DNA of 63,827 nucleotides from positions 1-63,827 of the forward strand of contig JBARIW010000075.1 of the NCBI GenBank assembly GCA_049799955.1. Reading direction: 5' to 3'. This stretch comes from Pyrinomonadaceae bacterium. Its GTDB lineage: Bacteria; Acidobacteriota; Blastocatellia; Pyrinomonadales; Pyrinomonadaceae. Below the pieces are notes generated by a model. That model saw only the letters and a program-made list of their open reading frames with translations. It was not told the origin of the DNA and ran no database searches. Shown piece after piece: positions 18,653 through 48,762 of this stretch. Numbering within the stretch: position 1 is the first letter of the stretch; every line of letters begins with the position of its first letter. Both the position numbers and the translations under genes were made by a program.

Positions 18653-20908
18653 TCAAAAATTCAAAACTAATTCGCCGTCTTTCTCTTCGACCGAAACGCT
18701 TCCGCCATCGGTTAGTTTGCCGAAAAGAATTTCCTGCGCGAGCGGCTGTTTGATTTTTTCGTGAATCAGACGCGCCATCGGACGCGCGCCGTATTTGCCG
18801 TCGAAACCGTGTTCGGCGAGCCAGACTTTCGCGCTTTCGGTGAGTTGTACGAGAACGCGTTTTTCGGCAAGCTGACCGTTTAGCTCGTTGATAAATTTAT
18901 CGACGATGAGCGTGATATGTTCGAGTTCGAGCGCTTTGAACGGCACCCACGCGTCGAGACGATTACGGAATTCGGGCGTGAATGTGCGTTCTATCGCTCC
19001 TTTTGCCTGACCTTTCGAGCTTGCCTGATTGCGAAAACCGACGCCGCCCGAAGATAATTCTCTCGCGCCCGCGTTGGTCGTCATAATCAAAATCACGTTG
19101 CGGAAATCGGCTTTTTTGCCGTTGTTGTCGGTCAGAGTCGCCGAATCCATCACCTGCAAGAGCAAATTAAAAAGGTTCGGATGCGCTTTTTCGATTTCGT
19201 CAAGAACGAGAACGGCGTGCGGCGTGCGCATAATCGCTTCGGTAAGAAGCCCGCCCTGGTCGTAGCCGACGTATCCCGGCGGCGCGCCGATGAGCCGCGA
19301 AACGGTGTGCGGCTCGGCATATTCGCTCATGTCGTAGCGCATAAATTCGATGCCGAGCTGTTCCGCTAATTGCTTTGAAAGCTCGGTTTTGCCAACGCCG
19401 GTCGGACCGCTGAAAAGAAACGAGCCGACGGGTTTTGTTTCGTGTCCGAGACCGGCGCGTGAAATCTGAATCGCGTTGACAATCTGGTCAATCGCTTCGT
19501 CCTGACCGAAAATTACGCCTTTCAAATCCGGCTTGAGCGTCTTCAAACGGTCTTTTTCGTCGGCGACAACCGTTTTCGGCGGAATTTTCGCCATCCGCGC
19601 AATCGCGTTTTCGACCATCTGAACGGAAATAAATTTCGGGCGCGTTTCGACGGGCAAAAGCTTCGTCGCCGCGCCGACCTCATCGATTACGTCAATCGCC
19701 TTGTCGGGCAAATGACGGTCGTTGATGTATTTTCCGGCGAGTTCGGCGGCGACTTTTAAAGCTTCGTCCGAATATTTTACGCCGTGATGTTCTTCGTAAA
19801 ATTTCTTTAAGCCTTTTAAGATTTCGTAAGTTTCGTCAATCGTCGGCTCGCCGATTTCGATTTTCTGAAAGCGTCTCGCAAGTGCGCGGTCGCGTTCAAA
19901 AGCGGCTTTGTATTCGCTGTATGTGGTCGAGCCGATACAGCGCAGAGCGCCGTCGGCAAGCGCGGGTTTTAAGATATTCGAAGCGTCCATCGCGCCGCCC
20001 GAAACCGCGCCCGCGCCGACGATTGTATGAATTTCGTCGATAAAAAGAATCGAATTTTCGTGTTTTTGCAGCTCGCTGATAATCGCTTTGAAACGCTGTT
20101 CGAAATCGCCGCGATAACGCGTTCCGGCAAGAACCGCGCCCATATCGAGCGCGAAAACTTTCGCGTCTTTTAAGACTTCCGGCACATTTCCCTCGCTGAT
20201 TTTCAGCGCCAAACCTTCCGCCAGCGCGGTTTTGCCGACGCCCGGCTCGCCGACGTAAAGCGGATTGTTTTTCTTTCGGCGGCAGAGAACCTGAATAGTT
20301 CTTTCGATTTCCTCCATCCGCCCGATTATCGGGTCAATTTCGCCTTTCGCCGCTTTTGCGACCAATTCGACGGTGAAAGATTCGAGCGGTTTTCTCTTTT
20401 TCGGTCGCGCGCGTTCTTCGGCAAATTCCTCGTCTTCCATCCCTTCGCCAATCGGGTCGAAATCCAGACCGTTATCGATTTTCGAGATGCCGTGCGCGAT
20501 ATAATTCATAATATCGAGCCGTGTTATGCTCTGCTGTTTGAGCAGATAAACAGCATAGCTTTGCTCTGCCTGATAAATTGCGGCGAGAATATTTCCGCCG
20601 TCAACGGCTCGCTGACCGCTGCCTTCCGCCTGCAAAACCGCGTATTGAATCGTCGCCTGAAACGTCGAAGTAAGCTCCGGCATCATCTTTGAGCCGTCGG
20701 GCATTTTCTCCAGAACGTCGGTGAAGTATTCCTCTAAAGATTTGGCTATTTCCTCAATTTTCGCGCCGCAGTTAAACAAAATATCGCGCGCGGCGGTGTC
20801 TTCGAGCAAAGCGAAAAGCAGATGCTCAAGCGTTACATATTCGTGTTTGTGCTTGACGGCTTCATCGACCGCAAAGCTTAACGTTTCTTCTAATTCTCTT
20901 GTCAACAT
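18653..20908 (-). CDS. clpA: ATP-dependent Clp protease ATP-binding subunit ClpA
   Basis: 751 aa, N-domain 'MLTRELEETLSFAVDEAVKHKHEYVTLEHLLFALLED', two AAA+ modules. Confidence 0.95.
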   Translation of the reverse strand: MLTRELEETLSFAVDEAVKHKHEYVTLEHLLFALLEDTAARDILFNCGAKIEEIAKSLEEYFTDVLEKMPDGSKMMPELTSTFQATIQYAVLQAEGSGQRAVDGGNILAAIYQAEQSYAVYLLKQQSITRLDIMNYIAHGISKIDNGLDFDPIGEGMEDEEFAEERARPKKRKPLESFTVELVAKAAKGEIDPIIGRMEEIERTIQVLCRRKKNNPLYVGEPGVGKTALAEGLALKISEGNVPEVLKDAKVFALDMGAVLAGTRYRGDFEQRFKAIISELQKHENSILFIDEIHTIVGAGAVSGGAMDASNILKPALADGALRCIGSTTYSEYKAAFERDRALARRFQKIEIGEPTIDETYEILKGLKKFYEEHHGVKYSDEALKVAAELAGKYINDRHLPDKAIDVIDEVGAATKLLPVETRPKFISVQMVENAIARMAKIPPKTVVADEKDRLKTLKPDLKGVIFGQDEAIDQIVNAIQISRAGLGHETKPVGSFLFSGPTGVGKTELSKQLAEQLGIEFMRYDMSEYAEPHTVSRLIGAPPGYVGYDQGGLLTEAIMRTPHAVLVLDEIEKAHPNLFNLLLQVMDSATLTDNNGKKADFRNVILIMTTNAGARELSSGGVGFRNQASSKGQAKGAIERTFTPEFRNRLDAWVPFKALELEHITLIVDKFINELNGQLAEKRVLVQLTESAKVWLAEHGFDGKYGARPMARLIHEKIKQPLAQEILFGKLTDGGSVSVEEKDGELVLNF

Positions 20909-20914
20909 ATGCTA

Positions 20915-21184
20915 CTAATTTTTTGCTGCTTCTTGATTAGCTCTTTCCTCTAACCATAAATTAACTAAAGTTTCCGTTGATACGCCTTTCTTTTCGGCAA
21001 TCGTGTGAAGCTTAGATGAAAGCGAAGTCTCAACCGCGTAATAAAAAACGTCGGATTCTAAATCAATTTCAAATTTCGCTTCCTCGGTTTTATCCCAAAC
21101 TTCGCCCAAATCGTGCGAATCCCAATACTCGCCAATTTCCTGATAAGATTTCGCTTCTGAAATTGAACTTTTATTTTCTGCCAT
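20915..21184 (-). CDS. brnA: BrnA-like antitoxin (RHH C-terminus)
   Basis: 89 aa; '…YQEIGEYWDSHDLGEVWDKTEEAKFEIDL…TLVNLWLEE' is the typical partner of BrnT. Overlaps brnT by 14 bp. Confidence 0.7.
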   Translation of the reverse strand: MAENKSSISEAKSYQEIGEYWDSHDLGEVWDKTEEAKFEIDLESDVFYYAVETSLSSKLHTIAEKKGVSTETLVNLWLEERANQEAAKN

Positions 21185-21455
21185 ACTGTTTTCTTTCCCT
21201 TTCGGTCATATCTCTTGCCGATAAAATCAAAGCGCGTCTGTCATTTTTATAGACGAAAAAACAAATCAAATAACGTCCCGAATCGGTTTGACCAAATGCC
21301 GCATATACATTTTCACCTTTTCGATGCCCTTTTTCAACAAAACGAATACGTGGATTATTGAGAAAAAGCTCGCGCACTTCTTCCGTTTCAACGGAATGTT
21401 TCCAAATCAATTTCTGAACGATTTCTTCGAGCCAAACGAATCCGGTAATTTTCAT
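21171..21455 (-). CDS. brnT: BrnT (DUF497) ribonuclease toxin
   Basis: 94 aa; MKITGFVWLEEIVQKLIWKHSVETEEVRELF … LILSARDMTERERKQY matches the BrnT pattern (W…KHG..F.E…F … IISARKAT..ER..Y). Confidence 0.8.
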   Translation of the reverse strand: MKITGFVWLEEIVQKLIWKHSVETEEVRELFLNNPRIRFVEKGHRKGENVYAAFGQTDSGRYLICFFVYKNDRRALILSARDMTERERKQYGRK

Positions 21456-21456
21456 T

Positions 21457-21789
21457 TTACTCTTCCTCGACCGTGCAGAGAAGCGGGTATTCGTGCGCCT
21501 TTGATAAATTCATCGCTTTTTCGGCTTTCATCGTGGCGACTTCGAACGAATAAACGCCCGCGACGCCAATGCCTTCGTTATGAACCTGGAACATAATCGT
21601 AAAAGCTTCGATGTCGGAGCGCATAAAGACGGTTTTGAGTATAAAAACGACAAAATCCATCGTCGTAAAATCATCGTTGTGAAGGATGACTTTATACATT
21701 TTCGGCTTTTCGAGCTTTGTCTCGCTCTCGGTCAGAACGTCGCTGTCTTGTTCAATATCGGGAAAATCCGGCATATTATCATTTATCAT
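21457..21789 (-). CDS. clpS: ATP-dependent Clp protease adaptor ClpS
   Basis: MYKVILHNDDFTTMDFVVFIL…HEYPLLCTVEEE is canonical ClpS. Confidence 0.9.
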   Translation of the reverse strand: MINDNMPDFPDIEQDSDVLTESETKLEKPKMYKVILHNDDFTTMDFVVFILKTVFMRSDIEAFTIMFQVHNEGIGVAGVYSFEVATMKAEKAMNLSKAHEYPLLCTVEEE

Positions 21790-21850
21790 TTATCATTGAA
21801 CATCTACCAAATGATTTAATAATAAATGATAAATGTTCAATGATAAATGT
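21777..21850. repeat. palindromic heptamer-repeat hairpin (ATCATTT x3 … AAATGAT) overlapping the clpS start codon
   Basis: tcatttatcattgaacat … atgttcaatgataaatg is a 17-bp perfect inverted repeat. The 5' arm encodes the clpS N-terminus MINDN. Confidence 0.85.
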
Positions 21851-22969
21851 TTAGATTTTATTAACTTCAAAATACGCTTTAATGGCGTTGTATTTGCTCG
21901 AATTGTCTAAGATGTCAAAAATCTTTTCATAGTTTTCCAAGCCTTCGACCTTGTGCGTCAGCATACGGGAAAGCCAGCCCGCGTACATCGCTTCGCAGAG
22001 CGCCAAATCTTTTACGCCAAGCTCGAAATGCTCGCGGTTGGCGTTGACCGTTCCGACCATTGCGCGATTTCCCAGAACGAACATCTGATTGATTTTGTCC
22101 GAAGGAACGGCGTCGGTTTTGCGCTCGCCGCCGGTTACGGAAGCGAGAATCAAAATGCCGTTTTCGTTCAAACTCTGCATCGCGTCGAAGATAATCGGCG
22201 AATAGCCCGTGCATTCAAAAACGAGGTCGTATTCGCCGTATTTTTTCGTACTTTCGGCAATCGATACATCGTCGGTCGAATCGTAAGTCGCGCCGATTGC
22301 TTCGATTAAATCCGCGTTCAGATAGCCTTCGCGCTTTTGCTTGCCGAAGCCGTGAACTTCGTAGCCGCGCAGGCGCAAAGCCATTATGGTCAGCAGCCCG
22401 ACGTTTCCCGTTCCGAGAACGGCGGCGGTTTTCGGATGCCAGATTTTCAAGCGTTCCTGGATGTCGCTCGCCTGTTTCAAGCCTTTTTCGATAATCGAAA
22501 GCGGTTCGAGAAGAACGGCGATTTCTTTAATCGCGGGCGGAATTTTTATTAAAAAATCTGCGCTTTCAGCGTAAAATTCCGACATATAGCCGTGCAGACG
22601 CGAGATTCCGCGCTCGTAATATTTGTCGTCGGTCGTAAAATCCTGCTCGCCGATTTTATCGTAAATGCTCGAACCGCGCGGACGCCTGACGGTGGCGACG
22701 ACGAAATCGCCTTTTTGTAATTCCTTTACATTTTCGCCCGTTTCGACGACGCGCCCGAAGTTTTCGTGTCCGAGAACGAGAAAATCGAAGCCTTTCGGCG
22801 CGACGCCGTATTCGCCGTTGTTTATTTCTCTGTCCGTTCCGCACGCTCCGACGCGCAAAACTTCGACCAGAACGCCGCGCCCGTCTTTAATTTCATCAAT
22901 TTCCGGTTTCTTCATTTGAACCAGCTTCACTGATTTCGCCTGTTTCGGCGTAACTGCTACTGCTTTCAT
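21851..22969 (-). CDS. zinc-dependent alcohol dehydrogenase family (glucose 1-dehydrogenase / threonine-DH-like)
   Basis: 372 aa; 'VGACGTDREI' catalytic-zinc motif, Rossmann fold. Confidence 0.8.
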   Translation of the reverse strand: MKAVAVTPKQAKSVKLVQMKKPEIDEIKDGRGVLVEVLRVGACGTDREINNGEYGVAPKGFDFLVLGHENFGRVVETGENVKELQKGDFVVATVRRPRGSSIYDKIGEQDFTTDDKYYERGISRLHGYMSEFYAESADFLIKIPPAIKEIAVLLEPLSIIEKGLKQASDIQERLKIWHPKTAAVLGTGNVGLLTIMALRLRGYEVHGFGKQKREGYLNADLIEAIGATYDSTDDVSIAESTKKYGEYDLVFECTGYSPIIFDAMQSLNENGILILASVTGGERKTDAVPSDKINQMFVLGNRAMVGTVNANREHFELGVKDLALCEAMYAGWLSRMLTHKVEGLENYEKIFDILDNSSKYNAIKAYFEVNKI

Positions 22970-23021
22970 AAATTATCCTCTTTAACTTTAGAGTTTAGCG
23001 TTTGTGCGGAAAAAGATTAAA

Positions 23022-23092
23022 TGCAGAGACGCTGGAGACGCGGAGAAAAGAAAATTTATTTCTTAAAATCTCTGCGTCTCCAGCGTCTTTGC
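23022..23092. repeat. GCAGAGACGC-family palindromic element (intergenic copy), terminator position
   Basis: tgcagagacgctggagacgcggaga-loop-tctctgcgtctccagcgtctttgcg; 22/25 complementary arms, and the loop is itself palindromic (aagaaa…tttctt). Confidence 0.85.
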
Positions 23093-23121
23093 GTTAAAAA
23101 AATACTTAATTTGCAATGACA

Positions 23122-26100
23122 TTAAACTTTTACTGCGACCGTCGCTTTGCGTTCCAGCTTGCCCCAACCGACGAGCGCGCCGCGAATTGCGGTCAGAACC
23201 GATTTGACCATCACCCAATACATTACCTGACGATAACCGAAACGCTGCAAGAGAAGCCAGCCGAGCAATCGTTTCTGCTCGCGTTTCTCCATCATAAACG
23301 CGGCGAACGCGCCGAACCAGTCAACCGCCAGAAAAAGCGCGTAATAAAACATCACCGCGCCCAGATTTGTCGGCGTATGCGCGTATTCTTTTTGATGTTC
23401 GAGATAGCCGATAAGCACGGAAACAAGCGTCCAGACGAACATCAAATCCATAAGCGGCGAAATGAGCGGAAACAAAACCTGAAAAATCCAGACGTTCGGC
23501 ATCGCGACGAAACCGAGCGCGCCGTATTTCGGATTGAGAAACGCCCGTTTGTGTTTCCACATACACTGTAAAGTTCCGAACGACCAGCGAAATCTCTGTT
23601 TTGCAAGCCCGCGAAGCATGTCGGGCGCTTCGGTCAGACCGACTGCGTTTTCTTCATAACCGATGTAATAGCCGAGCTTGCGAACCTGAATCGTTAAATC
23701 CTGGTCTTCGGCGAGCGTGTCGGACGAAAATCCGCCGATTTTTTCCAGAACCTCGCGCCGCCACGCGCCGACCGAACCGGGAACAACCGTGATGCAGTTC
23801 AGGGACGCAAAAGCGCGGCGGTCGAAATTCTGCGAAGTAACGTATTCGAGCGCCTGCCATTTGGTAACGATATTTATACGGTTTCCGACCTTCGCATTTC
23901 CGGCTACCGCGCCGATTGTTTTATCGGCAAAACGGCGCGCGAGCGCGGAAATCGTCTGCGATTCAAAAAGCGTGTCGGCATCGAGCGCGACGATAATCTC
24001 GCCTTTCGCCAGCCGCCAGCCGAAATTCAATGCCTCGGCTTTCCCGCCGTTTTCTTTACGAAAAATCGAAACTTTTTTGTTCGCGCCGAAATTTTCACGG
24101 GCAAGTTCAAACGTGTTATCGCCCGAGCCGTCGTCAACGACGATAACCTCAAAATTCGGGTAATCGGATTCAAGCAGGCTTTCAATAGTTCGGACGATTA
24201 CTTTTCCTTCGTTAAAAGCCGGAACGACGACCGAAACGCGCGGCTCGTATTTTTCGCCGAAATGGTCGTGCTCGCGCCTTCTTGAGCGCAGATATTGAGC
24301 GAAAGCAAGAATGCCGATGAGCGCCATCCGGCTCAAACCCAAAACGATTCCGATGATAAACGTCCACTGCATCAGCCAGCCGCCGATTGATATTCCGTAG
24401 AAAACAAACGAATCGGTTTCGGCGTAAAACGTCCGATTTTCGGGAACTTGCGGCATCGCCTGCTCGCGCGAAATATCCGCTAAATCGGAAACGGTCGTGA
24501 ACTCGAAACCACGCGCTTTTAGTTCGTGAATAATTCGCGGCAAAGCTTCGACGGTCGCCGAACGGTCGCCGCCGCCATCGTGCAGCAAAACTATCTCGCC
24601 GCGCGCTTCGAGCGTTGTAACTGCCGCCGCCGCAAGGGTTTCGTTGACCAAATCATCGGCATTGCGCGGCGTTCCATCGTCGTTTTTCAATTTCCAGTCG
24701 TCCGGGTCGATATGCAAGCCGACGGAAATATAACCTAAATTCTGCGCCTGAATGGTTGGCTCGACCTCGTCCGGCGTGCGCGGCTCGGCATCGCCGAAAT
24801 AAGGCGCGCGGAAAAGACGCGTCGAATGTCCGGTCAGCGATTCGATAAGGCGCTGGGTCGCGTTTAGTTCGATGTCTGTAACCTGACGCGGAACTTCGCC
24901 CAGATTCGGATGCGTGAACGAATGATTGCCGATTTCGTGACCTTCGGCGACGATTCGTTTGATTAAATCGGGATTTGCCTGACCGTTTTCGCCGACGACG
25001 AAAAACGCGGCTTTGACGTTTTCCTGTTTTAGAATATCGAGAATTTTCGGCGTCCAGACCGGGTCGGGTCCGTCATCGAAAGTCAGAACGATTTTCCCGA
25101 TTTTATCGCCCGTTCGCTGGATGACGTAAGACGACGGAACCTGCCGGTAAATTTCATTTGTAACCGCGCCGCCGGCGTCCGATTTCAAATCGCGCACGCC
25201 GTCCTGCGGCTCGGCTTTGACCTGAAGAATCTCGCCCGTTCCTTCAAAATCGACATCGTAGCCGTATTTGATAATTTTTAAATCATCCGACAAAAAACTC
25301 TGATTGTCCGCGCCGAATATTTTCCACAAACTCGGGTCTTCGCTGCCCAGACGCCACAGCGCAAAACCTGCGACTTTATAAGGTTCTGCGGATTGAATTT
25401 CGTTGTAAGCCGTAACCGCGTCGAGAAACCAGACGTTGTGCGTTTTGCCATCGTCCTCGACGTAGCTGAAATACGGATTTTTCGATGCGCTGTCAAACTT
25501 TATTTCGGTCGGGCTGTCCAGAGATTCTTTCGCGGCGAGTACGGACTGCTGAAACGAAATGTCTTCGGCTTCCTTCGCGCCGTTTGTCCAGTTGTAGCCG
25601 TAATTGCCGAAACAGACGACGGTTTTGGCTGGCGCAAGCTCCGTCATACGCTTTTTCAAAATCGTTTCAAACCATTCCTGACCGGCAATCGAACCGGCTT
25701 CGCCCGTCGACCAGTGCTGGTCATAAGCCATCAGCATCAGATAATCGATTACATTTGCGTAAGCGCGATAATTCCAGTCGGGATTGTCGAAGGGAACTGC
25801 CTGCGCGAGCGTCAAATTTCGTTTTTGAAACTCCGCGTGCAGCTCTTCCATAAATGTGAAAAGACTCGTCTGCGCGCTCGCCGGAACTTCCTCGATGTCA
25901 ATCGTGATGCCGCCGAATTTGTATTTCGCAATCGTTTCGAGCAATGATTTTATAAGTTTTTGGCGCGCGTCCTCCGTTGAAACGGCTTTTGCCAGAATTG
26001 CCGAATTCCATTGCTCGTTTTTATAGTTTTGCAAAAGCGGCAGAACCGGCATATCAGGCTTTTCCTGCTGAATCAAATCGAGCGCCTGTTGGTCAATGTC

Positions 26101-26694
26101 CAGAACGAGCGGGTTTTCATCGTCGCCCGAAAGCCGAATCCATTCGGGAACGAGCCAATCAAGCCTGTTGATATTCTGCTTGAGCGAAGCATAGCTGGAA
26201 TCGTCCCAGTTGACGTAAAAACCGATTGCCAGGGGCTTTCCGTTTGTATTTAAAGGCGGCGTCGGCGCGGGCTTGGTCGCCAGAAACATTTCTTTGTCGG
26301 ATAATTTTTGCCGCTTGATTTCGTCTCGTTTGCTCTTTTCAAGCTTTACCTGTTTGAGCAGCGAGTCATGTTTGCCGAGTTTAGGTATTTCGGGAAGCTG
26401 AATCTGCGTGTCTTCCTGCTGCGGCAAAAGCACCGACGGTTTTAAGCGAATTTGCGGAAGAAACGGATTTATCAGGACGCTGACGACGAAAAAGACGAAA
26501 AAAGCCGTTATTACGATTGCCAGCACAAGTCCGAGATAATTAAAAACACGCCAGCGTCTGCCTTTTTTGTCAAAAAAGACAGGTTTTTTGTTGTCCAAAA
26601 GCGAATCGTTTATCATATTTTTTAAAACCAGATAATAGATGCATAAACGAGATTTGGAGGCTAATGTTTTGAGTTTTTTATTCCTCGGAAGCAA
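23122..26694 (-). CDS. tri-domain membrane polysaccharide synthase: GH18-like hydrolase domain + NodB-type (CE4) polysaccharide deacetylase + family-2 glycosyltransferase (PgaC/IcaA/NodC-like)
   Basis: 1190 aa. N-terminal TM then a GH18-like domain ([11 protein letters not shown]…[10 protein letters not shown]); CE4 NodB motifs (TFDDGP…, …[11 protein letters not shown]); GT2 (VVVPAFNEG…VVDDGSGD… with processive 'QRFRWSFG' motif) plus C-terminal TM helices. The start overlaps the upstream GH63-like gene by 17 bp. Confidence 0.8.
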
Positions 26695-29476
26695 TTTCTG
26701 AAGTTTCGATATGCCTGCCGCTTTTTTCGTCTTCGTATTCGCCGATTTGCTGTAATAATTTGCCGATTAAACCTGTCCAGCCCGTCTGATGGCTCGCGCC
26801 GAGACCTGAGCCGCGGTCGCCGTGAAAATATTCGTAAAACAAAATATAGTCGCGCCAATGTTCATCCGTTTGAAATTTTTGGGTGCTGCCGTGAACGGCG
26901 CGGATTCCTTCCTCATCTTTTAAGAAAATGTTTGAAAGACGTTTCGATAATTCCTGCGAAACTTCCCAGAGCGTCAGCATTTTTTCAGAACCTGTCGGAA
27001 ATTCGATTTTAAAGTCTTCGCCGTAAAAGAAATCGAATTTCTGTAAACTCTCGATTAAAAGATAGTTGACCGGAAACCAGATTGGACCGCGCCAGTTCGA
27101 ATTTCCGCCGAACATTCCGCTTCGGGACTCGGCAGGCTCGTATTCGACCGTGTGTTTTGTTCCATCCATTTCTAAAATGTAAGGATTTGTTTTGTGAAAG
27201 CGCGAAAGCGCGCGAATGCCGTAATCGGACAAAAACTCGGTTTCCGAGAGCATATAGCGCAAAATGCTTTGCAGTTTTTCGCGCGTAACGATTGAGAGAA
27301 TCCGCCTTTTTTCTCTGCCTTCTTCCTGCATACAGGCGATGTCGTCGGTCAAATCGGGGCGGTTTTTGAGAAACCATTCGGTTCGTTTTCTGAATTCGGG
27401 CAGATTTTCAAGCCATTCTTCTTCGATGGTTTCGACCGCGAAAAGCGGAATCAGCCCGACCATCGAGCGCAGCTTTATAGGAATATTTCGCTGAGCCGGA
27501 AGGTGCAGAACGTCGTAATAAAAACCGTCGCGCTCGTTCCAAAGCTCGGTATTTTCGTTGCCGAGATTGTTCATCGCGTCGGAAATATAAACGAAATGCT
27601 CGAAAAATTTGCTGGCGACATCTTCATAAACCTTGTCTTCTTTGGCGAGTTCGAGCGCGATTGCGAGCATATTCAGGCAATACATCGCCATCCAGCTCGT
27701 TCCGTCGGATTGTTCCAAAAATCCGCCGCCCGGCAGCTTCGTGCTGCGGTCGAAAACTCCGATATTGTCGAGTCCGAGAAATCCGCCTTCAAAAACGTTA
27801 TTGCCTTCCTCGTCCTTTCGATTCACCCACCACGTAAAATTGAGAAGCAGTTTGTGAAAAACTTTCTCCAGAAAATCACGGTCTGTCGCGCCGCGCCTTT
27901 TTGCTTCGATTTGATAAACTCTGAGCGCCGCCCACGCGTGAACCGGCGGATTGACATCGCCGAAAGCCCATTCATACGCCGGAATCTGACCGTTCGGATG
28001 CATATACCATTCGCGCAGAAGCAGAATAAGCTGCTTTTTCGCAAAATCCGAATCGACCAGCGCGAGCGGAATCGTGTGAAAAGCCAAATCCCAAGCCGCG
28101 TACCACGGATATTCCCATTTGTCGGGCATCGAGACGATATCATCGTTGTAAAGATGTTTCCAATCCTTGTTTCGCCCGCTGAATCTCTCTTTCGGCGGCG
28201 GCGAAAACGCGCTGTCGCCTTCGAGCCAGTCTTTAACGATGTATTGATAAAACTGCTTCGACCAGAGCATTCCGGCTAAGCTTTGCCGCATCACGTTTTT
28301 TTCGTCGTCGGACAAATTATTTGGAATAATTTCAGTATAAAAATCATTGGCTTCGGCAATTCGCCGCTGGAAAATCGCTTCGCAGTCGGCGATGAATTCA
28401 TCGTGGGAAATTTCGCCGCAGAGACGCAGAGACGCGGAGTTTTTTTCAATTATTTCATCTTGATTCGTTTTTGAATTTTCTCTCAGCGTCTCTGCGTCTC
28501 TGCGGTTCAAATCCTTTTTGCACAAGCGCAAGTAAATCGTTTCGCTCGAATCAGGCGCAAGTTCAAAAGCATAATGCGCGGCGGCTTTCGTTCCCGTTTG
28601 CTTTGGATTGACGGCGTTTCTGTTGCCGCCGACGACATAATCGTTGATGCCGTCTTTGGCAAAGGGCGATTTATTTTCGCCGCCGTAAAGTTTTTGAAAG
28701 TTCGTCTCGTTTTCGCAGAAAAGCAAGGTTGAAGAGCCTTCCGCGCAAAGAATATATTCGCCGATTGGAGATTCGAGATGCACTAGCGAGAGATTTTCCG
28801 CGCTCGTTTCCGCTTTTTTCAAAATCGGTTTTTTTGCGCTTTCCGTCCAAGACCAGTTATTGCGAAACCAGACGGTCGGCAAAATATGAAGCGGCGCGGG
28901 TTCTTCCGAGCGATTAAAAGCGGTGATTTTAATGCAAATATCTTCCGCGTCCGCCTTTGCGTATTCTACAAAGACATCGAAATATTTGTTTTCGTCAAAC
29001 GCGCCCGTGTCCATCAATTCAAATTCCGGCTGCGATTTGTCGCGCCGGAGATTTTCGTCTTTGAGAATTTTGTAGGGAAATTCGCTCTGCGGGTATTTGT
29101 AGAGATATTTCATGTAGGAATGCGTCGGCGTGTTGTCGAGATAAAAATAATATTCTTTTACGTCTTCGCCGTGATTTCCCTGATTACCGCCGACGCCGTA
29201 AAGTCTTTCCTTTAGAACCCGGTCTTTGCCGTTCCATAAAGATAAAGCGAAGCAGATGTGCTGTTTGCGGTCGCAAATGCCGGCGATTCCGTCTTCGTTC
29301 CAGCGATAAGTTTTCGAAACTGCCTGCTCGAACGGGAAATAATCCCACGCCGCGCCGTCAGCCGAATAATCTTCGCGCACCGTTCCCCAGGCTCGTTCCG
29401 AAACGTAACAGCCCCATTGCTTCCAGTCTTTTTCTTTTTTTCGTGCTTCTTCGAGCCGTTTTTCTTCCGCCTGCAA
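26678..29476 (-). CDS. GH63-like (MGH1/processing-alpha-glucosidase-like) glycoside hydrolase
   Basis: 932 aa; '…[17 protein letters not shown]…' N-domain and an (alpha/alpha)6-barrel-like C-domain ('[14 protein letters not shown]…'). Family assignment is from memory of the fold pattern. Confidence 0.65.
28416..28506. repeat. GCAGAGACGC-family palindromic element inserted in-frame inside the GH63-like CDS
   Basis: ccgcagagacgcagagacgcggag-43 nt-ctcagcgtctctgcgtctctgcgg; encodes …[30 protein letters not shown]… on the minus strand. Confidence 0.8.
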
Positions 29477-29692
29477 CGCTTTTTCCTCAAAAAAATTAGT
29501 GTATTAAAAGAATGTCATAAAGAATTTTTTACGTCTAGCCTTATTTAGATAAATAAAATTTATGGACGAACGGGAAAAAATCTGTTAAATTTCAATATTG
29601 GATATACCAATTTCTGAGACTACCCCTAAAAAAAAAGATTTTCTTGCTGAAATAAAGATTGGATTAGTAGTTTTATCTCCTTAACTAGAGCA

Positions 29693-32600
29693 ATGAAAAA
29701 AAGTTCCCTTTCGACCAAAGAATATTTCAAGTCGGAAAACGCCTCCCATTTTGGCGCGAAGGCTGACTCGCGCTTTCGTAAAGTGAGAGCCATCTCCGAC
29801 GAGAAATTAGCAGACAATATAACCGAAGTCCGGCTCAAACTGGACGAAGGACTTTCCGGCGCGGCTGAAAAAATCATCCGCGAGACGCTGGAAAATTTTT
29901 CGCTTGACGCCGAGCAGCAGGCGACGTTACAGCATCTTTTGTCTTACACGCTGGAAACGCAGGGACGCTACCCGGAAGCGCTCGAAGTTATCGCGGCTTT
30001 CGAAGACGAAGCGGCTTTAACCAATCTCAAAGACGAAACGCGAATTTACGTCCTTGTTCAGCTCGCCATCTCGCACAACAATCAGACGGATTTTCCGAAA
30101 GCCGTCGCGCTTCTGAAAAAAAGCCGCGAAGAAGCCGAAGCAAAAAAACTGACATCTCTTTTGGGAAGCATTTTCGTCGCGCTGGCGCGTGTTTACCGCA
30201 AGCTTAACGAATTTCCGATTGCCCGCGACCACGCCGAAAAAGCTTTGAATTATTTCCGCGAGCAAGGCGACTGGCGCGGAATGGCGGAAAGCTATTTTCT
30301 GATTGCCACCACGCTTCATCAGGAAGGCGACAGCGCAAAATCTCTGGAATATTTTCAGCAGGCAATCAAAATTATCGGCTCGCGCAGCGCTTTGTTTCTG
30401 CTCGGCAAGATTTATTCCGACCTCTCGGGCGCATACTGGTTTTTGCGCCGCCCGCAGGAAGGCATCGCGTGTCTCGAAAAATCGATTAAATTCTTTGACC
30501 GTACCGAACATAAAATTCACTCAATCGCCGCGTATAACAATCTCGGAATCAACCTGATGCTGCTCGGCGAATGGACAAAAGCCGAAAGCGTCATCAAACG
30601 CGCGCTGGAATTGGCTTTTGAAACGAATCACGTTCACATCGCGGGAATTCTGGATTCACTGGGCGAGCTAAAGCTTCTTAGAGGCGATTTGGATGAAGCG
30701 CAAAAACTTCTGGAACGCGGCGTTACCATCGCGCAGGAGCGCAAAAAGGAATGGTACGAAATTCAGGCTTCGCGCAATCTGGCGAGAACGCTTCTGGCGC
30801 AGGGAAATCTGACCGAAGCAACGGAGCGGGCGCAGGAAACAATCGAGATTTGCCGCCGAATCGGCGAGCGTCAGATTTCCAATATGGCGAGCCTCGTGCT
30901 GGCGGAAGCTTACCTGCAAAAAGGCAAATTTATCGATTGTGAGAGCGAGCTCGAAGCGATTGAAAAAAACGAGCCGAGCTCCGACTTTTTCGTGCTCGGC
31001 AACGTTCAGCGTATTCGCGGGCTTCTTTCGCTCGAATACAGGGACAAGGAGCTTGCTGCTCATCATTTCAGCCGCGCTTTGACGATTTTCGAGACGGCGG
31101 AAGATTTATATCACACGGCTCTGGCGCATTTTCTGGTTGGAAAAACCGTTTTCGCGGGCGAACCGGAACGCGCGCTGAAGCATTTGACTTCGGCAAGCGA
31201 GATTTTCCGCAAGCTCGACGTTAAGCCGCTTCTAAAGGAAACGCAGGAAATTCTCGAAGAACTCAAAACGGTCGAAACGGGAAACAAAACTACTTCGTCA
31301 GCCGGTTCGCAGCTTTTGATGCTTCGTCTGGCGGAAGCGACCGCCTCGCGCGAGCTTCTTTTCCGCGAGCTTGTCGCCATTTTGCAGCAGGAAAGCAAGG
31401 CGAAGAAAATCATCGTCGCCGAGATGAACGACCAGAAAAGATTTTACCCGTTTATTACGCACGGCTATGTTCCCGCCGAGAGTATGGAGCTTGTCTCCAA
31501 ATTTCACGAAGCGCAGATAAAAAATGAAGTAGAAATTTTCGCCAAAACAAAAAATTTACAGGTTTACCAGCTTCGCTCGCCGAGCGCTTCGCCCGCGATT
31601 TTGATGATAAGCCCGCAGTCAGGCGCGGTTTTAAACGACGAAAGCTCGATTCAGCCGCTTCTGCGCGTCGTCGAGCTTGGAATGGACGTTTGCGCTTTGC
31701 GCGATAAAGACAAAACCAACATCGGCGAGCAGGCGACAAGTTCGTTTACTTCCAATAGTTTAATGCCCGGTTTTATTCATTCTTCGCCCGCGATGACATC
31801 TCTGGTCGAAGAAGTTTATAAAATCCGCTCGTCCGACGTAACGGTTTTGGTTACGGGCGAATCGGGAACGGGCAAAGAGCTTGTCTCGCGCGCGATTCAC
31901 ACGATTTCTTCCCGTAAGGATAAAATTTTCGTGCCGTTTAACTGCACCGCCGTTCCCAAAGAATTAGCCGAGGGTCATCTTTTCGGTTATCGCAAAGGCT
32001 CGTTTACCGGCGCGGTAACGGATTCGCAGGGAATGATTCGCGCGGCTGATGGCGGAACTTTGTTTTTAGACGAAGTCGGCGATTTGCCGCTCGACGTTCA
32101 GCCAAAACTATTAAGATTTCTTCAGGAAGGCGAAATTCAGCCGCTCGGCGAAAAACGCCCGATAAAAGTTGACGTTCGCATCATCGCCGCGACCAATATG
32201 CCGCTCGAAGCGAAAGTTGCCGACGGCAGCTTCCGCGAAGATTTATATTATCGCCTGAACGTCATCCGCCTGCGCGTTCCGCCTCTGCGCGAACGTCGCT
32301 CGGAAATTCCGCCGATAATCAATTATTACGTCAATCATTACGCGGCAAAATTCGGTCGGCGCAACATAACGATTACGCCGCAGACGATAGATTTGCTGAT
32401 GGTCTGCGATTGGGACGGCAATGTGCGCCAGCTTTGCAACGAGATTCAGCGCGTCGTCGCCCGCGCCGAAGACGGCGAAACGATAACGCCCGACCATCTC
32501 TCGTCCGAACTGAAACGCAGCGCGACGCCGATTTCGTCGCTCGCAACCAACAGCGGTAACGTGCGTCAGATTGCTTCTTACGACAAATCATACAGCAGCT

Positions 32601-32782
32601 TTAATATCGGCTCGGAAAGCGGAACGCTCGAAGAAGCTGTTTCGGAATTGGAAACGCAGATGATAAACGATTCATTAGGAAGACATAACTGGAACATCTC
32701 AAAAGTCGCCCGTGAATTAGGCTTAACCAGACGCGGTCTGTATATGAAAATCGCCCGCTACGGCATCGAAAAATCGGCGTGA
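29693..32782 (+). CDS. sigma-54-dependent transcriptional activator with a ~650-aa N-terminal TPR-repeat sensor region
   Basis: AAA+ sigma-54 interaction domain (GESGTGKELVSRAIH; 'GSFTGA' variant of GAFTGA; ESELFGH-like) and a C-terminal Fis-type HTH (…NISKVARELGLTRRGLYMKIARYGI). Confidence 0.85.
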   Translation: MKKSSLSTKEYFKSENASHFGAKADSRFRKVRAISDEKLADNITEVRLKLDEGLSGAAEKIIRETLENFSLDAEQQATLQHLLSYTLETQGRYPEALEVIAAFEDEAALTNLKDETRIYVLVQLAISHNNQTDFPKAVALLKKSREEAEAKKLTSLLGSIFVALARVYRKLNEFPIARDHAEKALNYFREQGDWRGMAESYFLIATTLHQEGDSAKSLEYFQQAIKIIGSRSALFLLGKIYSDLSGAYWFLRRPQEGIACLEKSIKFFDRTEHKIHSIAAYNNLGINLMLLGEWTKAESVIKRALELAFETNHVHIAGILDSLGELKLLRGDLDEAQKLLERGVTIAQERKKEWYEIQASRNLARTLLAQGNLTEATERAQETIEICRRIGERQISNMASLVLAEAYLQKGKFIDCESELEAIEKNEPSSDFFVLGNVQRIRGLLSLEYRDKELAAHHFSRALTIFETAEDLYHTALAHFLVGKTVFAGEPERALKHLTSASEIFRKLDVKPLLKETQEILEELKTVETGNKTTSSAGSQLLMLRLAEATASRELLFRELVAILQQESKAKKIIVAEMNDQKRFYPFITHGYVPAESMELVSKFHEAQIKNEVEIFAKTKNLQVYQLRSPSASPAILMISPQSGAVLNDESSIQPLLRVVELGMDVCALRDKDKTNIGEQATSSFTSNSLMPGFIHSSPAMTSLVEEVYKIRSSDVTVLVTGESGTGKELVSRAIHTISSRKDKIFVPFNCTAVPKELAEGHLFGYRKGSFTGAVTDSQGMIRAADGGTLFLDEVGDLPLDVQPKLLRFLQEGEIQPLGEKRPIKVDVRIIAATNMPLEAKVADGSFREDLYYRLNVIRLRVPPLRERRSEIPPIINYYVNHYAAKFGRRNITITPQTIDLLMVCDWDGNVRQLCNEIQRVVARAEDGETITPDHLSSELKRSATPISSLATNSGNVRQIASYDKSYSSFNIGSESGTLEEAVSELETQMINDSLGRHNWNISKVARELGLTRRGLYMKIARYGIEKSA

Positions 32783-32870
32783 AGATTTAAGATTCAAGAT
32801 TTAAGATTCAAGATTTAAGATTTTGTCTTTCAATTTTGAATCTTAAATCTTGAATCTTAAATTTCGAATC
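32783..32870. repeat. CAAGATT-family palindromic heptamer-repeat element (copy 2), convergent-gene terminator position
   Basis: agatttaagattcaagatttaagattcaagatttaagatTTTGTCTTTCAATTTTGAAtcttaaatcttgaatcttaaatttcgaatc. It shares the centre ttttgtctttcaattttgaa with copy 1 and is translated as the C-terminal tail of 32808..34553. Confidence 0.9.
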
Positions 32871-34553
32871 ACAAAGAAATACGCTCAAGCTCATTAAAAT
32901 AAAGAAAACCATTGCAACTTCCTGGTCGCCGAGATTGTAATGTACAAGACCACTCGTAAAAAATCCGACTAAGCCGCCGAGCGAGCCGAGAACTACACCT
33001 TTTTCAATCAGGGAAGAGGAGAAAAGGAGAGGAGGAGAAGAGGAGATTTCTGACCGATTTGCAATAGCCTTTTCTCCTCGTCTCCTTTTCTCCTCGTCTC
33101 CTTTTCTCAAAATCAGCACTTTCGCATAACGCCACAAAATCCAGAGCCAGAGAAGCAGCGCGGGCAAACCGCGTTCGACCAGTAATTGCAAAGGCGTCGA
33201 ATGAAAATGTCCCTGCGGAAGCCGTCCGCTGTCGTATAAATTCCAGTCCTTCCAGTAGCGCTGAATCGAATCCATTCCGACGCCGAGCGTGAAATTTCGC
33301 GCATCTTGCGTCCAGAGTCGAAAACCGTCGCGCCACATCGTTTGCCGGTAAGCGGTCGAATCGTCCTTCGCGTCGAAAAACCCGACATTCCGGCTCTGCT
33401 GAAGAAAAATCAGCCCGCCGACGGCAACCGGCAAAATTATCGCGGCTAGAGCCAAAAGCAATTTGCGTCTGCCGCTTGCCAGCACGATTGCAACAGCCGA
33501 GATGAGAAATGCTAATTGCGAAGCGCGCGTAACGGTCAAAAGCAGCGCGAGCGACATCAATACTACGCAAATAAAAGTGAGAAGTGAGAAGTGAGAAGTG
33601 AAAAGTGAAGAATTAGATTTCTTTTCTTCCTTTGCGCCTTTGCGCCTTTGCGGGAAAAAACTCGCAATGAACAACCCGAATGTTAAAGATAAAATCAACT
33701 GCAAAACTTCCGCATACGTCGCGTAGTGTCCGAAAAATCCGCTTGAGCGCCAGTTTCTGCTTTTTTTCCAGCTTTGGATGCCGAGCCGTTCGAGCGCGTT
33801 CGCGCCGCTTAATAAATTCTCTCGCTTTATATCGACGGCAAATTCAAAATCCGGTCGATAAAATGTAACTTTCGAACTCTCGTTTTGCTCGATTTGCGCG
33901 ACCAAATCTTCGGGCGAGCTTAGTTTTTTGCCGTTGGCGGCGAGCAATGCGTCGCCTTCAATCAAAACGGCTTTTGCCAGAGGACTGTTTGGCGCGACGC
34001 CGTGAATCTCGACGCCGCGCCCGATTATTCGTTGAACCGGCGTCCAAAGAACGTTGACCATACACGAAAAAATCATCGCCAGCGCCAGAAATCGTACCGC
34101 GCGCTTTGTTCGGAGATTATTTATGACAAAATAAAAAATCAGAAAAAGCGCCGCGCCGCGCAGCTTATTCACGGAAATTTCGGGCGCGTAGGAAAATGCG
34201 GACGAAATGACAGACCAGCCGAAAAACGCCCACAAAGGAATGTCCAGAGCCGTCTTGACGAATTTCGGGCGCGGTTTTATAAAAAGGCGAACTATCCAGA
34301 CAAACATTCCGGTTATCCACGCCGTTTGCGAGGCGGCAATCGAATGCGGCGCGGATAAAATCATCAAAATCAGAAAAGCAAACGCGATTCGCTCACACCA
34401 TCGCGCCGCGTTGTTTTCAGTTTCGATTCCGGCTAATTCATCAAATTTTTTGAGAAAATCGCGCATAGAAAGAGAAAGTTTCCCACAAAGCGCAGAAACA
34501 CGCAAAAACAAAGCGATTTTGACATTTCCGGTTTGGCTAAAGTAGTCTGACAA
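32808..34553 (-). CDS. polytopic membrane protein, O-antigen-ligase (Wzy_C)-like with an embedded PDZ domain
   Basis: 581 aa, more than 10 TM segments. The PDZ-like segment is 'GVEIHGVAPNSPLAKAVLIEGDALLAANGKKLSSPEDLVAQIE'. Contains in-frame repeat insertions at 33003-33105 and 33573-33655. Confidence 0.5.
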   Translation of the reverse strand: MSDYFSQTGNVKIALFLRVSALCGKLSLSMRDFLKKFDELAGIETENNAARWCERIAFAFLILMILSAPHSIAASQTAWITGMFVWIVRLFIKPRPKFVKTALDIPLWAFFGWSVISSAFSYAPEISVNKLRGAALFLIFYFVINNLRTKRAVRFLALAMIFSCMVNVLWTPVQRIIGRGVEIHGVAPNSPLAKAVLIEGDALLAANGKKLSSPEDLVAQIEQNESSKVTFYRPDFEFAVDIKRENLLSGANALERLGIQSWKKSRNWRSSGFFGHYATYAEVLQLILSLTFGLFIASFFPQRRKGAKEEKKSNSSLFTSHFSLLTFICVVLMSLALLLTVTRASQLAFLISAVAIVLASGRRKLLLALAAIILPVAVGGLIFLQQSRNVGFFDAKDDSTAYRQTMWRDGFRLWTQDARNFTLGVGMDSIQRYWKDWNLYDSGRLPQGHFHSTPLQLLVERGLPALLLWLWILWRYAKVLILRKGDEEKRRRGEKAIANRSEISSSPPLLFSSSLIEKGVVLGSLGGLVGFFTSGLVHYNLGDQEVAMVFFILMSLSVFLCDSKFKIQDLRFKIERQNLKS

Positions 34554-47238: not shown

Positions 47239-48762
47239 TTGAGAGAAACTGAAAAACTAAAAATTTTATCTAAGATTGGGAAGGCATTCGCTTCAAATAA
47301 TTCCCCGGCGTCAGCCTTGCCGATACTTCTTGAAATATGTCGTGAAGAACTTGATTTCTCGCGGAGCTTTATCGTTTTATACGATGCGGCAACCGAAAAA
47401 TCACGTCCATACGCAACCGACGGAATCAGCGCAGCCGAATTTCGCCGTCTGGAAAATCACATAGAAAAAAGCTTTATCTGGCGGGTTTTTCAAAACAATA
47501 AACCTGTAACGCTGCCAAAAACAAATTTAGAACCTACATTTTTATCGGTTTTTGAAGATAAAAACAACAAAAACGTAGAAACGAGCTGTATTTGCGTTCC
47601 AATTCGATTGGGTGAAAAGGTTATCGGCGCGTTTGGCGTTGAATTCGTTTATGAGAGTCAGTTTGATTATGAAAATTTGTCGGATTTTTTGTCGGTTGCG
47701 GCGACAATGATTTCCCAAGCCTTAAAGGTTACACGCGTCGTACAGGGAGAGAAGGAAAGACTTCTGGCGGAAAATACGAGCCTGCGGCGCGAATTGCGCG
47801 AAAAATACGATTTCAGTCATATCATCGGCAATTCAAGCGCGATGCGCCGGGTTTATGACCGGGTAACGCAGGTTGCGCGCGCTAATGCGACCGTTTTATT
47901 GCGGGGCGAATCGGGAACGGGCAAAGAATTAATTGCCGGTGTCATTCATTATAATTCGCTCCGGGCGAAGAAACCGATAATAAAAATTAGCTGCGCCGCG
48001 CTGCCGGAAACGCTGATTGAAGCCGAGCTTTTCGGTTATGAGAAAGGCGCGTTTACCGGCGCGCAAGCCAGAAAAAAAGGTCGTTTTGAACTGGCTGAAG
48101 GCGGAACGCTTTTTCTGGATGAAATCGGGGATTTATCCGCGCAGACGCAGGTAAAATTACTGCGTGTTCTTCAGGAGAGGGAGTTTGAACGACTCGGCGG
48201 GACGGAAACCATAAAAGCCAACGTCAGGCTTATTACGGCGACCAATAAAAATCTGGAAGAAGCTATCGGCGACGGTTCTTTTCGTGAAGATTTGTTTTAT
48301 CGTCTGAACGTTTTTACGATTTTTCTGCCGCCTTTGAGAGAGCGCAAAGCGGATATTTTGCTGCTCGCGGAAAATTTTGTCGAAAAATATGAACGAGAAC
48401 ACGGCAAACATATCAAGCGCATTTCGACTCCGGCGATTGATATGCTGACGAGCTATCATTTTCCGGGAAATGTTCGCGAGCTTGAGAACGCCATCGAACG
48501 CGCCGTTCTGGTTTGCGACGGAAATGTCATTCACGGGCATCATCTGCCGCCGACTCTGCAAATGGCGGAAGTTACCGGAACCGTAACGCAGTTTTCGCTT
48601 GTCCGGGCGGTCGAAGCCTTTGAAAAAGATTTGATTACGGACGCGCTGAAAACGACTCGCGGTAATTGCTCGAAAGCCGCCAAATTACTCGATACGACCG
48701 AGCGAATTCTTATTTACAAAATTAAAAAATACGCCATCGCGCCGCGCCGGTTCAAAAACTAA
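47239..48762 (+). CDS. sigma-54-dependent activator with N-terminal GAF domain (NifA/FhlA-like architecture)
   Basis: TTG start. It has a GAF-like N-domain, an AAA+ domain (GESGTGKELIAGVIH, GAFTGA, GGTLFLDEIGDL) and a C-terminal HTH. Confidence 0.85.
   Translation: MRETEKLKILSKIGKAFASNNSPASALPILLEICREELDFSRSFIVLYDAATEKSRPYATDGISAAEFRRLENHIEKSFIWRVFQNNKPVTLPKTNLEPTFLSVFEDKNNKNVETSCICVPIRLGEKVIGAFGVEFVYESQFDYENLSDFLSVAATMISQALKVTRVVQGEKERLLAENTSLRRELREKYDFSHIIGNSSAMRRVYDRVTQVARANATVLLRGESGTGKELIAGVIHYNSLRAKKPIIKISCAALPETLIEAELFGYEKGAFTGAQARKKGRFELAEGGTLFLDEIGDLSAQTQVKLLRVLQEREFERLGGTETIKANVRLITATNKNLEEAIGDGSFREDLFYRLNVFTIFLPPLRERKADILLLAENFVEKYEREHGKHIKRISTPAIDMLTSYHFPGNVRELENAIERAVLVCDGNVIHGHHLPPTLQMAEVTGTVTQFSLVRAVEAFEKDLITDALKTTRGNCSKAAKLLDTTERILIYKIKKYAIAPRRFKN

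Follow-up and report, generated by a model that had tools for sequence, protein, structure and literature searches.

Synthase-dependent polymers of N-acetylglucosamine (GlcNAc) such as poly-N-acetylglucosamine (PNAG) are central to biofilm biology and have so far been studied as multi-protein Pga or Ica systems or as the two-domain protein MatB. A contig of 63,827 nucleotides (JBARIW010000075.1; this whole stretch is called the window in the following), which is part of a metagenome-assembled genome of a soil bacterium of the Pyrinomonadaceae (Acidobacteriota), raises the question whether such a system can be carried by a single polypeptide, and whether the genes next to it are parts of the same machinery. 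Three open reading frames (ORFs) are present at the locus in question, at 23122-26694 and 26678-29476 on the minus strand and at 29693-32782 on the plus strand. An earlier note on this DNA had read them as one exopolysaccharide module, in which a GH63-like hydrolase gene is co-transcribed with a fused GH18/CE4/GT2 synthase and placed under the control of a divergently transcribed sigma-54 activator with tetratricopeptide repeats (TPR). Pfam searches confirm the identities of all three gene products. We consider it likely that the synthase, a protein of 1164 amino acids, is by itself a synthase-dependent exopolysaccharide enzyme that makes a partly deacetylated GlcNAc polymer, with MatB and PgaC as its nearest characterised type. 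A single chain which unites a synthase, a deacetylase and a GH18 domain with its D-x-E pair is a compact system, and it could reveal in what way the membrane-bound steps of polymerisation, deacetylation and cleavage depend on each other.

The synthase gene occupies 23122..26616 on the minus strand and starts at ATG 26616 rather than at TTG 26694, the start of the longest ORF (1190 amino acids); the deposited gene model likewise comprises 1164 amino acids from ATG 26616. The 120 homologues listed with at least 70% identity cover 91-98% of the 1190-residue query (97-98% in 116 of them) and are between 1092 and 1231 amino acids long, with 110 falling in the range of 1157-1179; N-terminus and length of the 1164-residue model are common to these homologues. 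Judged by this comparison, the start at ATG 26616 is almost certainly the correct one. With this start, the stop codon of the GH63-like gene and the start of the synthase gene are separated by a gap of 61 nt in the sequence (26617..26677, minus strand), and the 17-bp overlap reported previously, which needs the TTG start, has to be given up. Residue numbers below refer to the 1164-residue protein unless the long, 1190-residue ORF is named.

Hydropathy analysis and an AlphaFold2 model for which 74 homologues were aligned agree on the order of the parts, namely a first transmembrane helix (TM1), GH18, a beta-sandwich, CE4, a second transmembrane helix (TM2), GT2 and C-terminal transmembrane helices, which is also the order of membrane segments, hydrolase, deacetylase and GT2 that the earlier note had given. 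The N-terminus is short, basic and cytoplasmic, and carries the motif PVFxDxxGRRW at residues 12-22 (26551-26583; this and all further features of the synthase lie on the minus strand) directly ahead of TM1. The motif is conserved in the homologue alignment A1 as well as among proteins of CE4-GT2 form and may be a regulatory site. TM1 (residues 26-48, 26473..26541) shows a Kyte-Doolittle peak of 3.1, corresponds to a helix at residues 20-49 in the AlphaFold2 model and is joined to the GH18 barrel by a low-complexity linker. The periplasmic GH18 domain, a (beta/alpha)8 fold (PF00704; residues 127-435, 25312..26238), contains the key motifs D240-I-E242, M296-A-Y-D299 and W421. At the junction of GH18 and CE4 lies a small beta-sandwich linker domain (residues 450-503, 25108..25269) to which no Pfam family matches; the model places five beta-strands at residues 455-503 with a predicted local distance difference test score (pLDDT) of about 79-93, and G459, G461, G473 and R475 are invariant in alignment A1. 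The periplasmic CE4 deacetylase of NodB type (PF01522; residues 505-720, 24457..25104) possesses all five CE4 motifs, i.e. TFDDG (512-516), HSFTH (565-569), RAPY (603-606), DPDDW (637-641) and LLHDG (677-681). Taken together, the whole periplasmic module is modelled at a pLDDT of about 90, with values of about 90 or higher for GH18.

Behind this module the chain crosses the membrane in TM2, a long segment (residues 730-785, 24262..24429) with a hydropathy peak at 741-776 that is modelled as a single helix over its full length; it ends in RSRRRE, where the chain re-enters the cytoplasm. The catalytic domain of the processive GT2 (residues 790-1030, 23527..24249) is cytoplasmic and its catalytic set is complete, comprising DDG (828-830), DAD (879-881), AED (969-971) and QRFRW (1007-1011), so that the QxxRW motif noticed previously is found together with the D, DxD and ED elements. 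The C-terminal membrane helices (residues 1031-1150, 23167..23526), which presumably form the polymer channel, show hydropathy peaks at 1033-1106 and are modelled as helices at 1034-1149 with low confidence. Since the match to E. coli PgaC extends only from TM2 onwards (PgaC residue 41), the GH18-CE4 module takes the place that in PgaC belongs to a short first loop in the periplasm.

What the individual domains resemble was determined by profile, fold and sequence comparison. The GH18 domain matches PF00704 with E 4.7e-19 and 69.7 bits against a cut-off of 29.6 (residues 205-450 of the long ORF), which assigns the N-terminal domain to a glycosidase family. Its best Foldseek matches include SleL (4s3k, E 4.5e-24), a chitinase (5jh8, TM-score 0.86) and YdhD, and by both sequence and fold its nearest relatives are the spore-cortex proteins SleL/YaaH, YdhD and chitinases. 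The CE4 domain matches Polysacc_deac_1 (PF01522) with E 4.3e-33; among the NCBIfam models NodB (137 bits), PdaB (136 bits) and PgdA (134 bits) score almost equally, and Foldseek finds the peptidoglycan GlcNAc deacetylase Bc1960 (4l1g, TM-score 0.84). A BLASTP comparison of the periplasmic part with E. coli PgaB gives no significant match (best E 0.11). For GT2, several Pfam GT2 families match with E values of about 1e-32, and the best curated family is PgaC_IcaA (TIGR03937) with 187 bits and E 5.2e-55, compared to 91 bits for NodC and 69 for CelA. The PgaC_IcaA alignment is near full length (model positions 15-386 of 407, reaching residue 1169 of the long ORF), whereas the NodC model matches the catalytic core only and its 91 bits stand against a cut-off of 550. 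Direct comparison with E. coli PgaC yields 28% identity at E 1e-33, and in tblastn searches against plasmids PgaC genes score 119-138 bits (27-31% identity), NodC genes 94-106 bits and HasA 89 bits. On these scores, the GT2 domain is a member of the PgaC/NodC/HAS superfamily that leans to PgaC and lies outside every curated family.

The three-domain layout is not a peculiarity of the window. A search with the GH18 domain in 1.84 billion representative proteins returned 417 clusters (50% identity) at E <= 1e-30, and at least 45 of them share the layout, as 45 of the best 150 of these 417 have a length of 1000-1250 amino acids with GH18 at about residues 100-430. Scans of genomes and metagenomes yielded 74 close loci and a set of 100 diverse loci (loci from these scans are designated by L and a number). 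Of the diverse loci, 53 have the three-domain form and 11 are CE4-GT2 matches, nine of which start at the CE4 domain while the remaining two (L102 and L071) are truncated by a contig end; in five of these nine loci the shared N-terminal motif and TM1 are recognisable in the ORF next upstream, and the match of all five ORFs is confined to the first ~90 residues of the synthase. Split forms exist as well, in which GT2 is encoded by a gene of its own behind that for GH18-CE4 (L082, L083 (Anaerolineales) and L084). The layout occurs in Acidobacteriota, Deinococcota, Gemmatimonadota and Proteobacteria; named records comprise Pyrinomonadaceae/Blastocatellia, Gemmatimonadota, a Myxococcales genome bin and, within the Proteobacteria, Hyphomicrobium, Rhodanobacter, Methyloceanibacter and Rhizomicrobium. 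A full-length homologue with 41% identity end to end (WP_239051893.1) is encoded on plasmid NZ_CP092194.1 of the cultured Deinococcus sp. KNUC1210, which makes the polymer question directly testable. On this plasmid (L085, 6691-11858) the synthase homologue is immediately followed by a gene for a sensor diguanylate cyclase.

Conservation of the catalytic residues was evaluated in 45 diverse full-length homologues with 34-64% identity. The catalytic residues of CE4 and GT2 are kept in all 45, and those of GH18 in most, with D240 found in 43, E242 in 41, Y298 in 39, D299 in 43 and W421 in 41 of them; D240, E242 and W421 are also among the invariant positions of alignment A1. Such conservation suggests that all three predicted activities are under selection, with the GH18 site having apparently decayed in a few lineages. 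The three-domain form is an abundant, real and well conserved variant of MatB/Pga-type systems, and it may explain part of the matrix chemistry of abundant, poorly cultured soil phyla. The idea of an all-in-one GlcNAc polymer machine advanced in the earlier note is therefore reasonable, since layout and catalytic residues are kept across phyla, while such a machine is not unique, since CE4-GT2 fusions of MatB type are known and the three-domain form is abundant. In the text of the open-access literature we found no description of a GH18-CE4-GT2 protein.

The closest characterised counterpart is Streptomyces MatB (SCO2962), which consists of an extracellular CE4 domain, a transmembrane helix and an intracellular GT2 domain and works together with MatA; its product binds the F598 antibody and is sensitive to dispersin B but insensitive to chitinase, which shows it to be PNAG (PMC5972031, PMC4391728). 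Compared by description, MatB and the window protein each combine, on a single polypeptide, an extracytoplasmic CE4 domain of NodB type with a GT2 domain that resembles PgaC and lies in the cytoplasm, the two being joined through a membrane helix; in both, the CE4 domain is PgdA/NodB-like and not IcaB-like (for MatB: PMC5972031, PMC4391728), and both lack a PgaA partner and apparently also a PgaD partner. Moreover, the N-terminal segment with PVFxDxxGRR and TM1 recurs in CE4-GT2 relatives of the window protein. In contrast to MatB, the window protein contains an additional GH18 domain of 300 amino acids and a beta-sandwich between TM1 and CE4, and the window has no separate MatA-like gene.

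With the E. coli pgaABCD system the window protein shares its presumed division of labour, in which a GT2 synthase, a periplasmic CE4 domain and a (beta/alpha)8 hydrolase work on the same polymer chain. It differs from that system in being one polypeptide with reversed order (hydrolase, then CE4), in lacking a PgaA porin and apparently a PgaD partner, and in its hydrolase, which is a GH18 domain with D-x-E whereas that of PgaB belongs to GH153. The C-terminal (beta/alpha)8 domain of PgaB (GH153) is structurally similar to GH18 and GH20 and lacks their catalytic motifs (PMC5933820). A survey of pga operons describes divergent Gram-negative fusions of PgaB-like CE4 with a glycosyltransferase in loci without pgaA and pgaD, for which polymer production is unconfirmed; the GH18 domain and Acidobacteria are not mentioned there (0 occurrences each; Bundalovic-Torma et al. 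2020, PMC7112194).

The likeness to the nodulation enzymes consists in a GT2 domain that is 28-30% identical to NodC and in NodB being the top curated CE4 match (137 bits). NodB is a separate soluble protein, unlike the periplasmic, membrane-tethered CE4 of the window protein, and NodC makes short oligomers. SleL/YaaH and YdhD are the nearest GH18 relatives at just 18-22% identity. They are secreted or spore-associated proteins that act on peptidoglycan, with SleL carrying LysM domains. Both SleL (about 430 residues) and YdhD (about 320 residues) are free-standing and show no match to the CE4 and GT2 parts of the query.

Based on this architecture we propose the following course of events. The cytoplasmic GT2 domain would polymerise GlcNAc from UDP-GlcNAc and thread the growing chain out through its own C-terminal membrane helices. 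A periplasmic module of roughly 690 amino acids, held between TM1 and TM2, would await the chain at the outer face of the inner membrane, where the tethered CE4 domain would take off some of the N-acetyl groups. The D-x-E pair of GH18 would then cut or trim the chain at remaining GlcNAc units by a substrate-assisted reaction that needs the N-acetyl group, and GH18 would thereby take the role which the GH153 domain of PgaB plays on deacetylated PNAG. The product would be a partly de-N-acetylated, cationic poly-GlcNAc.

Several points weigh against this proposal. In the AlphaFold2 model the C-terminal half of GT2 has low confidence, a consequence of the shallow alignment in this part. The 187 bits obtained with PgaC_IcaA are far under the curated cut-off of that family (422.3), and by BLAST the GT2 domain is only modestly nearer to PgaC than to NodC. 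The CE4 domain resembles NodB, PgdA and PdaA rather than PgaB or IcaB, and no PgaB or IcaB family is found among its NCBIfam matches at E <= 1. We know of no GH18 enzyme (CAZy) that cleaves beta-1,6 linkages, and GH46 chitosanase genes flank proteobacterial homologues of the synthase. The window codes for no export porin and no Wza/Wzc as an outer-membrane export partner, and no experimental study of the three-domain layout was found in the open-access literature. The CE4-GT2 protein IgtG glycosylates a lasso peptide instead of producing an exopolysaccharide (PMC11912497), and the architecture alone is therefore no proof of exopolysaccharide synthesis. Finally, the D-x-E pair of GH18 is lost in L105, L112, L113, L116 and L119, so that hydrolysis may be dispensable.

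The last point leads to the question whether the GH18 domain is a hydrolase at all. It could be argued that it is not, as the sequence G236-I-T238-I-D240-I-E242 retains only the last D-x-E of the canonical DxxDxDxE motif, the first two aspartates being replaced by G236 and T238, and as the five diverse homologues just named retain the domain after loss of D240 or E242. In addition, the (beta/alpha)8 domain of PgaB was initially reported to bind PNAG and to be critical for its export (PMC5933820). We nevertheless regard a non-hydrolytic GH18 domain as unlikely, given that D240, E242, Y298, D299 and W421 constitute the minimal set for substrate-assisted catalysis and are kept in 39-43 of the 45 homologues, and that the nearest structure, SleL, is a spore cortex-lytic enzyme according to its PDB entries. 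GH46 genes, which code for chitosanases, could be thought to replace a dead GH18 domain; this fits L116, but L079 and L080, which also have a GH46 gene, keep an intact D-x-E, and we rejected the idea.

A second question concerns the linkage of the predicted polymer. We lean slightly to a beta-1,6-linked, PNAG-like product, which we rate somewhat likelier than a beta-1,4-linked one and otherwise put at about even chances; the leaning comes from the similarity of GT2 to PgaC together with the precedent of MatB. Alternatively, the enzyme may make beta-1,4-linked chitin and turn it into chitosan by partial deacetylation while the chain emerges, with GH18 acting as a true chitinase which sets the chain length; it would then do in one bacterial protein what fungi accomplish with chitin synthase, chitin deacetylase and chitinase. 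Such a product would agree with the intact D-x-E, xYD and Trp of GH18, whose closest structures (SleL and chitinases) act on beta-1,4-linked GlcNAc, and with the CE4 domain, for which the top families NodB, PdaB and PgdA all use beta-1,4-linked substrates while PgaB and IcaB remain unmatched. It would also agree with a GT2 domain that is about equally far (27-31% identity) from PgaC and NodC. In line with a chitosan-type product, GH46 chitosanase genes (E 4e-36) adjoin synthase homologues at L079 (11469-12503), L080 (11268-11891) and L116 (10156-10986), with 50-60% mutual identity. However, this adjacency concerns three of about 65 diverse loci, all of them proteobacterial, and none of the acidobacterial loci examined. 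Furthermore, PgaC_IcaA, the best curated GT2 family, scores twice as high as NodC, and its alignment includes the C-terminal membrane region; the CE4 domain of MatB is PgdA/NodB-like, too, yet the polymer of MatB is sensitive to dispersin B and insensitive to chitinase. We therefore hold the beta-1,4 product, in the form of this one-protein equivalent of the fungal enzymes, to be possible though clearly the less favoured assumption. If it were true, the protein would represent a bacterial route to chitosan. The broader claim sees the widespread three-domain family as such as a bacterial chitin/chitosan machine, in which one polypeptide joins GlcNAc units by beta-1,4 bonds, converts the chain to a chitosan-like cationic polymer by deacetylation and has its own chitinase to cut it. 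This claim appears to us a little more doubtful still; its consequence would be that chitosan-type exopolysaccharide is a common and overlooked component of the matrices of soil Acidobacteriota, Gemmatimonadota, Deinococcota and Proteobacteria.

We now turn to the neighbouring genes and to the possibility that the 9.6-kb stretch forms a single sigma-54-controlled exopolysaccharide module, with the GH63-like protein as dedicated hydrolase and the TPR activator as switch. The three genes are indeed adjacent, and those for the GH63-like protein and the synthase share a strand, with 61 nt between them. A scan of 22800-29800 with sigma-70 and terminator consensus sequences finds no promoter-like or terminator-like site in this gap, the counts across the scanned region being at the level of shuffled sequence. 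Owing to the gap being free of such sites and to a conserved block ahead of the GH63-like gene (see below), both genes are probably co-transcribed.

The GH63-like gene (26678..29476, minus strand) codes for 932 amino acids. Its product matches MGH1-like_GH (PF22422) with E 4e-21 and 76.4 bits against a cut-off of 27 and, marginally, the GH63 C-terminal family (PF03200; 23.5 bits against 22.4). A profile search of the PDB gives only weak matches, all of them GH63, and the top fold match is a GH63 glucosidase I, which is supportive only as the model is poor (pLDDT 58). Since the protein contains no hydrophobic segment (maximum Kyte-Doolittle value 1.28) and its N-terminus is hydrophilic, it is assigned to the cytoplasm, and we predict it to be a cytoplasmic enzyme of alpha-glucosidase type. 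It is very common and highly conserved, with 8000 matches, and over 120 clusters reach an identity of at least 72%. The gene stands between regulator and synthase in about 9 of the 74 close loci, and is thus missing from most of them; it also occurs without any synthase in L087 (a 5.4-Mb genome, 3703-11546), where the order is regulator, GH63-like gene, glucose-dehydrogenase-like alcohol dehydrogenase (ADH) and ClpS, and in an unrelated context in L088. An enzyme located in the cytoplasm, belonging to an alpha-glucoside-hydrolysing clan and found in so few synthase loci is difficult to reconcile with the part in the polymer machine that it had been given.

In the window, a gene for a glucose-dehydrogenase-like zinc ADH (21851..22969, minus strand; Glu_dehyd_C, E 1.9e-49) follows 152 nt downstream of the synthase on the same strand; it is found in 15 of the 74 loci. 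As can be seen from the window (21457-32782) and L087, the slot between regulator and clpS holds varying cargo, namely the synthase alone, GH63-like gene and synthase, synthase and ADH, or GH63-like gene and ADH. The GH63-like and ADH genes are optional cassettes of this one slot and not parts of the polymer machine; together they look more like a sugar-catabolic pair.

The divergent gene (29693..32782, plus strand) codes for a TPR-rich sigma-54 enhancer-binding protein of 1029 amino acids with matches to Sigma54_activat (PF00158, E 6.7e-67), TPR_12, TPR_MalT and HTH_8 (E 1.9e-11). With its intact AAA+ domain, a GAFTGA-type loop and a C-terminal helix-turn-helix it fits the pattern of enhancer-binding proteins, as would be expected of a switch. 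The loop does read GSFTGA as stated before, a sequence found in eight loci; it is not unusual, however, and represents a minor variant among orthologues that mostly have GAFTGA. In 43 of the 61 loci with enough upstream sequence, the neighbour transcribed divergently from the synthase is an orthologue of the regulator. This adjacency is found in 42 of 49 loci whose synthase is at least 66% identical and in 1 of 12 below that value, is absent from the 65 diverse loci and is confined to the Pyrinomonadaceae. As conservation next to the synthase is just as high for ClpS (51 loci) and IleRS (44 loci) in this family, we do not count the regulator adjacency as functional evidence; it may reflect mere relatedness.

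If the activator controlled the locus, a sigma-54 element should be present. We scanned for GG-N10-GC and scored the sites against TGGCACG-N4-TTGCW (12 positions). No element with a score of at least 9/12 is found in the window, and the best site in 29440-29720 scores 5/12 and lies inside an ORF, in agreement with the earlier reading by eye, which had seen no -24/-12 element in 29477-29692. The 46 orthologous intergenic regions contain no such element, and 1.56 Mb of related loci contain no match of at least 10/12. The proposed sigma-54 control thus finds no support in these scans, and the term module claims more linkage than is seen, as neither the GH63-like gene nor the regulator is a conserved partner of the synthase outside one bacterial family. 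Altogether we regard a sigma-54-controlled three-gene module as very improbable, and retain the reading of the synthase as a self-contained enzyme.

Instead of a sigma-54 element, the intergenic region contains a conserved promoter-like block of ~75 nt between the regulator and the first downstream gene (29545-29611, minus strand), with the consensus aaTTGAATACTwAGTAAACAGCGCA-nn-TGAAATyTAnCArAaAa-N9/10-cGTCyAyatTTTT. The block is kept in 46 of 46 orthologous intergenic regions (set L002-L070) and in L087 (6880-6935), while its flanks are not conserved, and it always stands ahead of the first gene of the operon, whether this is the GH63-like gene or the synthase. In the window its core reads TGAAATTTAACA-N14-CGTCCA (29563..29594, minus strand) and ends 85 nt upstream of the start codon of the GH63-like gene. 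A perfect palindrome, ATTGGATATACCAAT (29597..29611), is a candidate operator; it stands where most relatives have the palindrome TACTwAGTA within TTGAATACTwAGTAAACAGCGCA. No Rfam family matches the intergenic region or the block at E <= 1. With respect to promoter class, the hexamers GAAAT ... CGTC resemble a promoter of extracytoplasmic function (ECF) type, though they are 20 nt apart, and the block may alternatively fit a sigma-70-type TTAACA-N18-yAyATT. In either case the block would be a promoter of a type other than sigma-54, and transcription would start near about 29563-29594 with the GH63-like gene read first. No sigma factor gene is present in the window. A second sigma-54 activator with the canonical GAFTGA loop is encoded at 47239-48762 (GAF, AAA+ and HTH_8).

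Clustering of the neighbouring ORFs in the 74 close and 65 diverse loci reveals no universal partner of the synthase. No PgaD/IcaD-like gene was called next to it in the window or in its relatives, although small divergent proteins could be missed. Neighbours that recur in the diverse set do so sporadically. A PMT_2-like membrane protein (GT-C fold) is encoded by the synthase in 8 of the 65 diverse loci, usually divergently (L051, 8225-9973; L053, 13520-15193; L090, L091, L104, L106, L109 and L138). An MprF-like gene (LPG_synthase_C, E 6e-96) lies directly 3' of the synthase in the Gemmatimonadota loci L066 (13312-16080), L071 (2158-4731) and L077 (2007-4463), and the same cluster is found near the synthase in L098, which makes 4 of 65 diverse loci; the products of the MprF-like protein and of the synthase would both give the envelope positive charge.

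Three further observations concern the surroundings of the locus. A pair resembling BrnT toxin and CopG antitoxin (20915-21455) is inserted between clpS (21457-21774) and clpA (18653-20908). At the 3' end of the activator gene, 32808-34553 on the minus strand codes for a membrane protein with Wzy_C (O-antigen ligase-like) and PDZ domains, and the same arrangement is found in L087, L031 and L032. Finally, an ORF for a DDE_Tnp_1 transposase (53718-54773) lies in a region of low G+C content (0.41).

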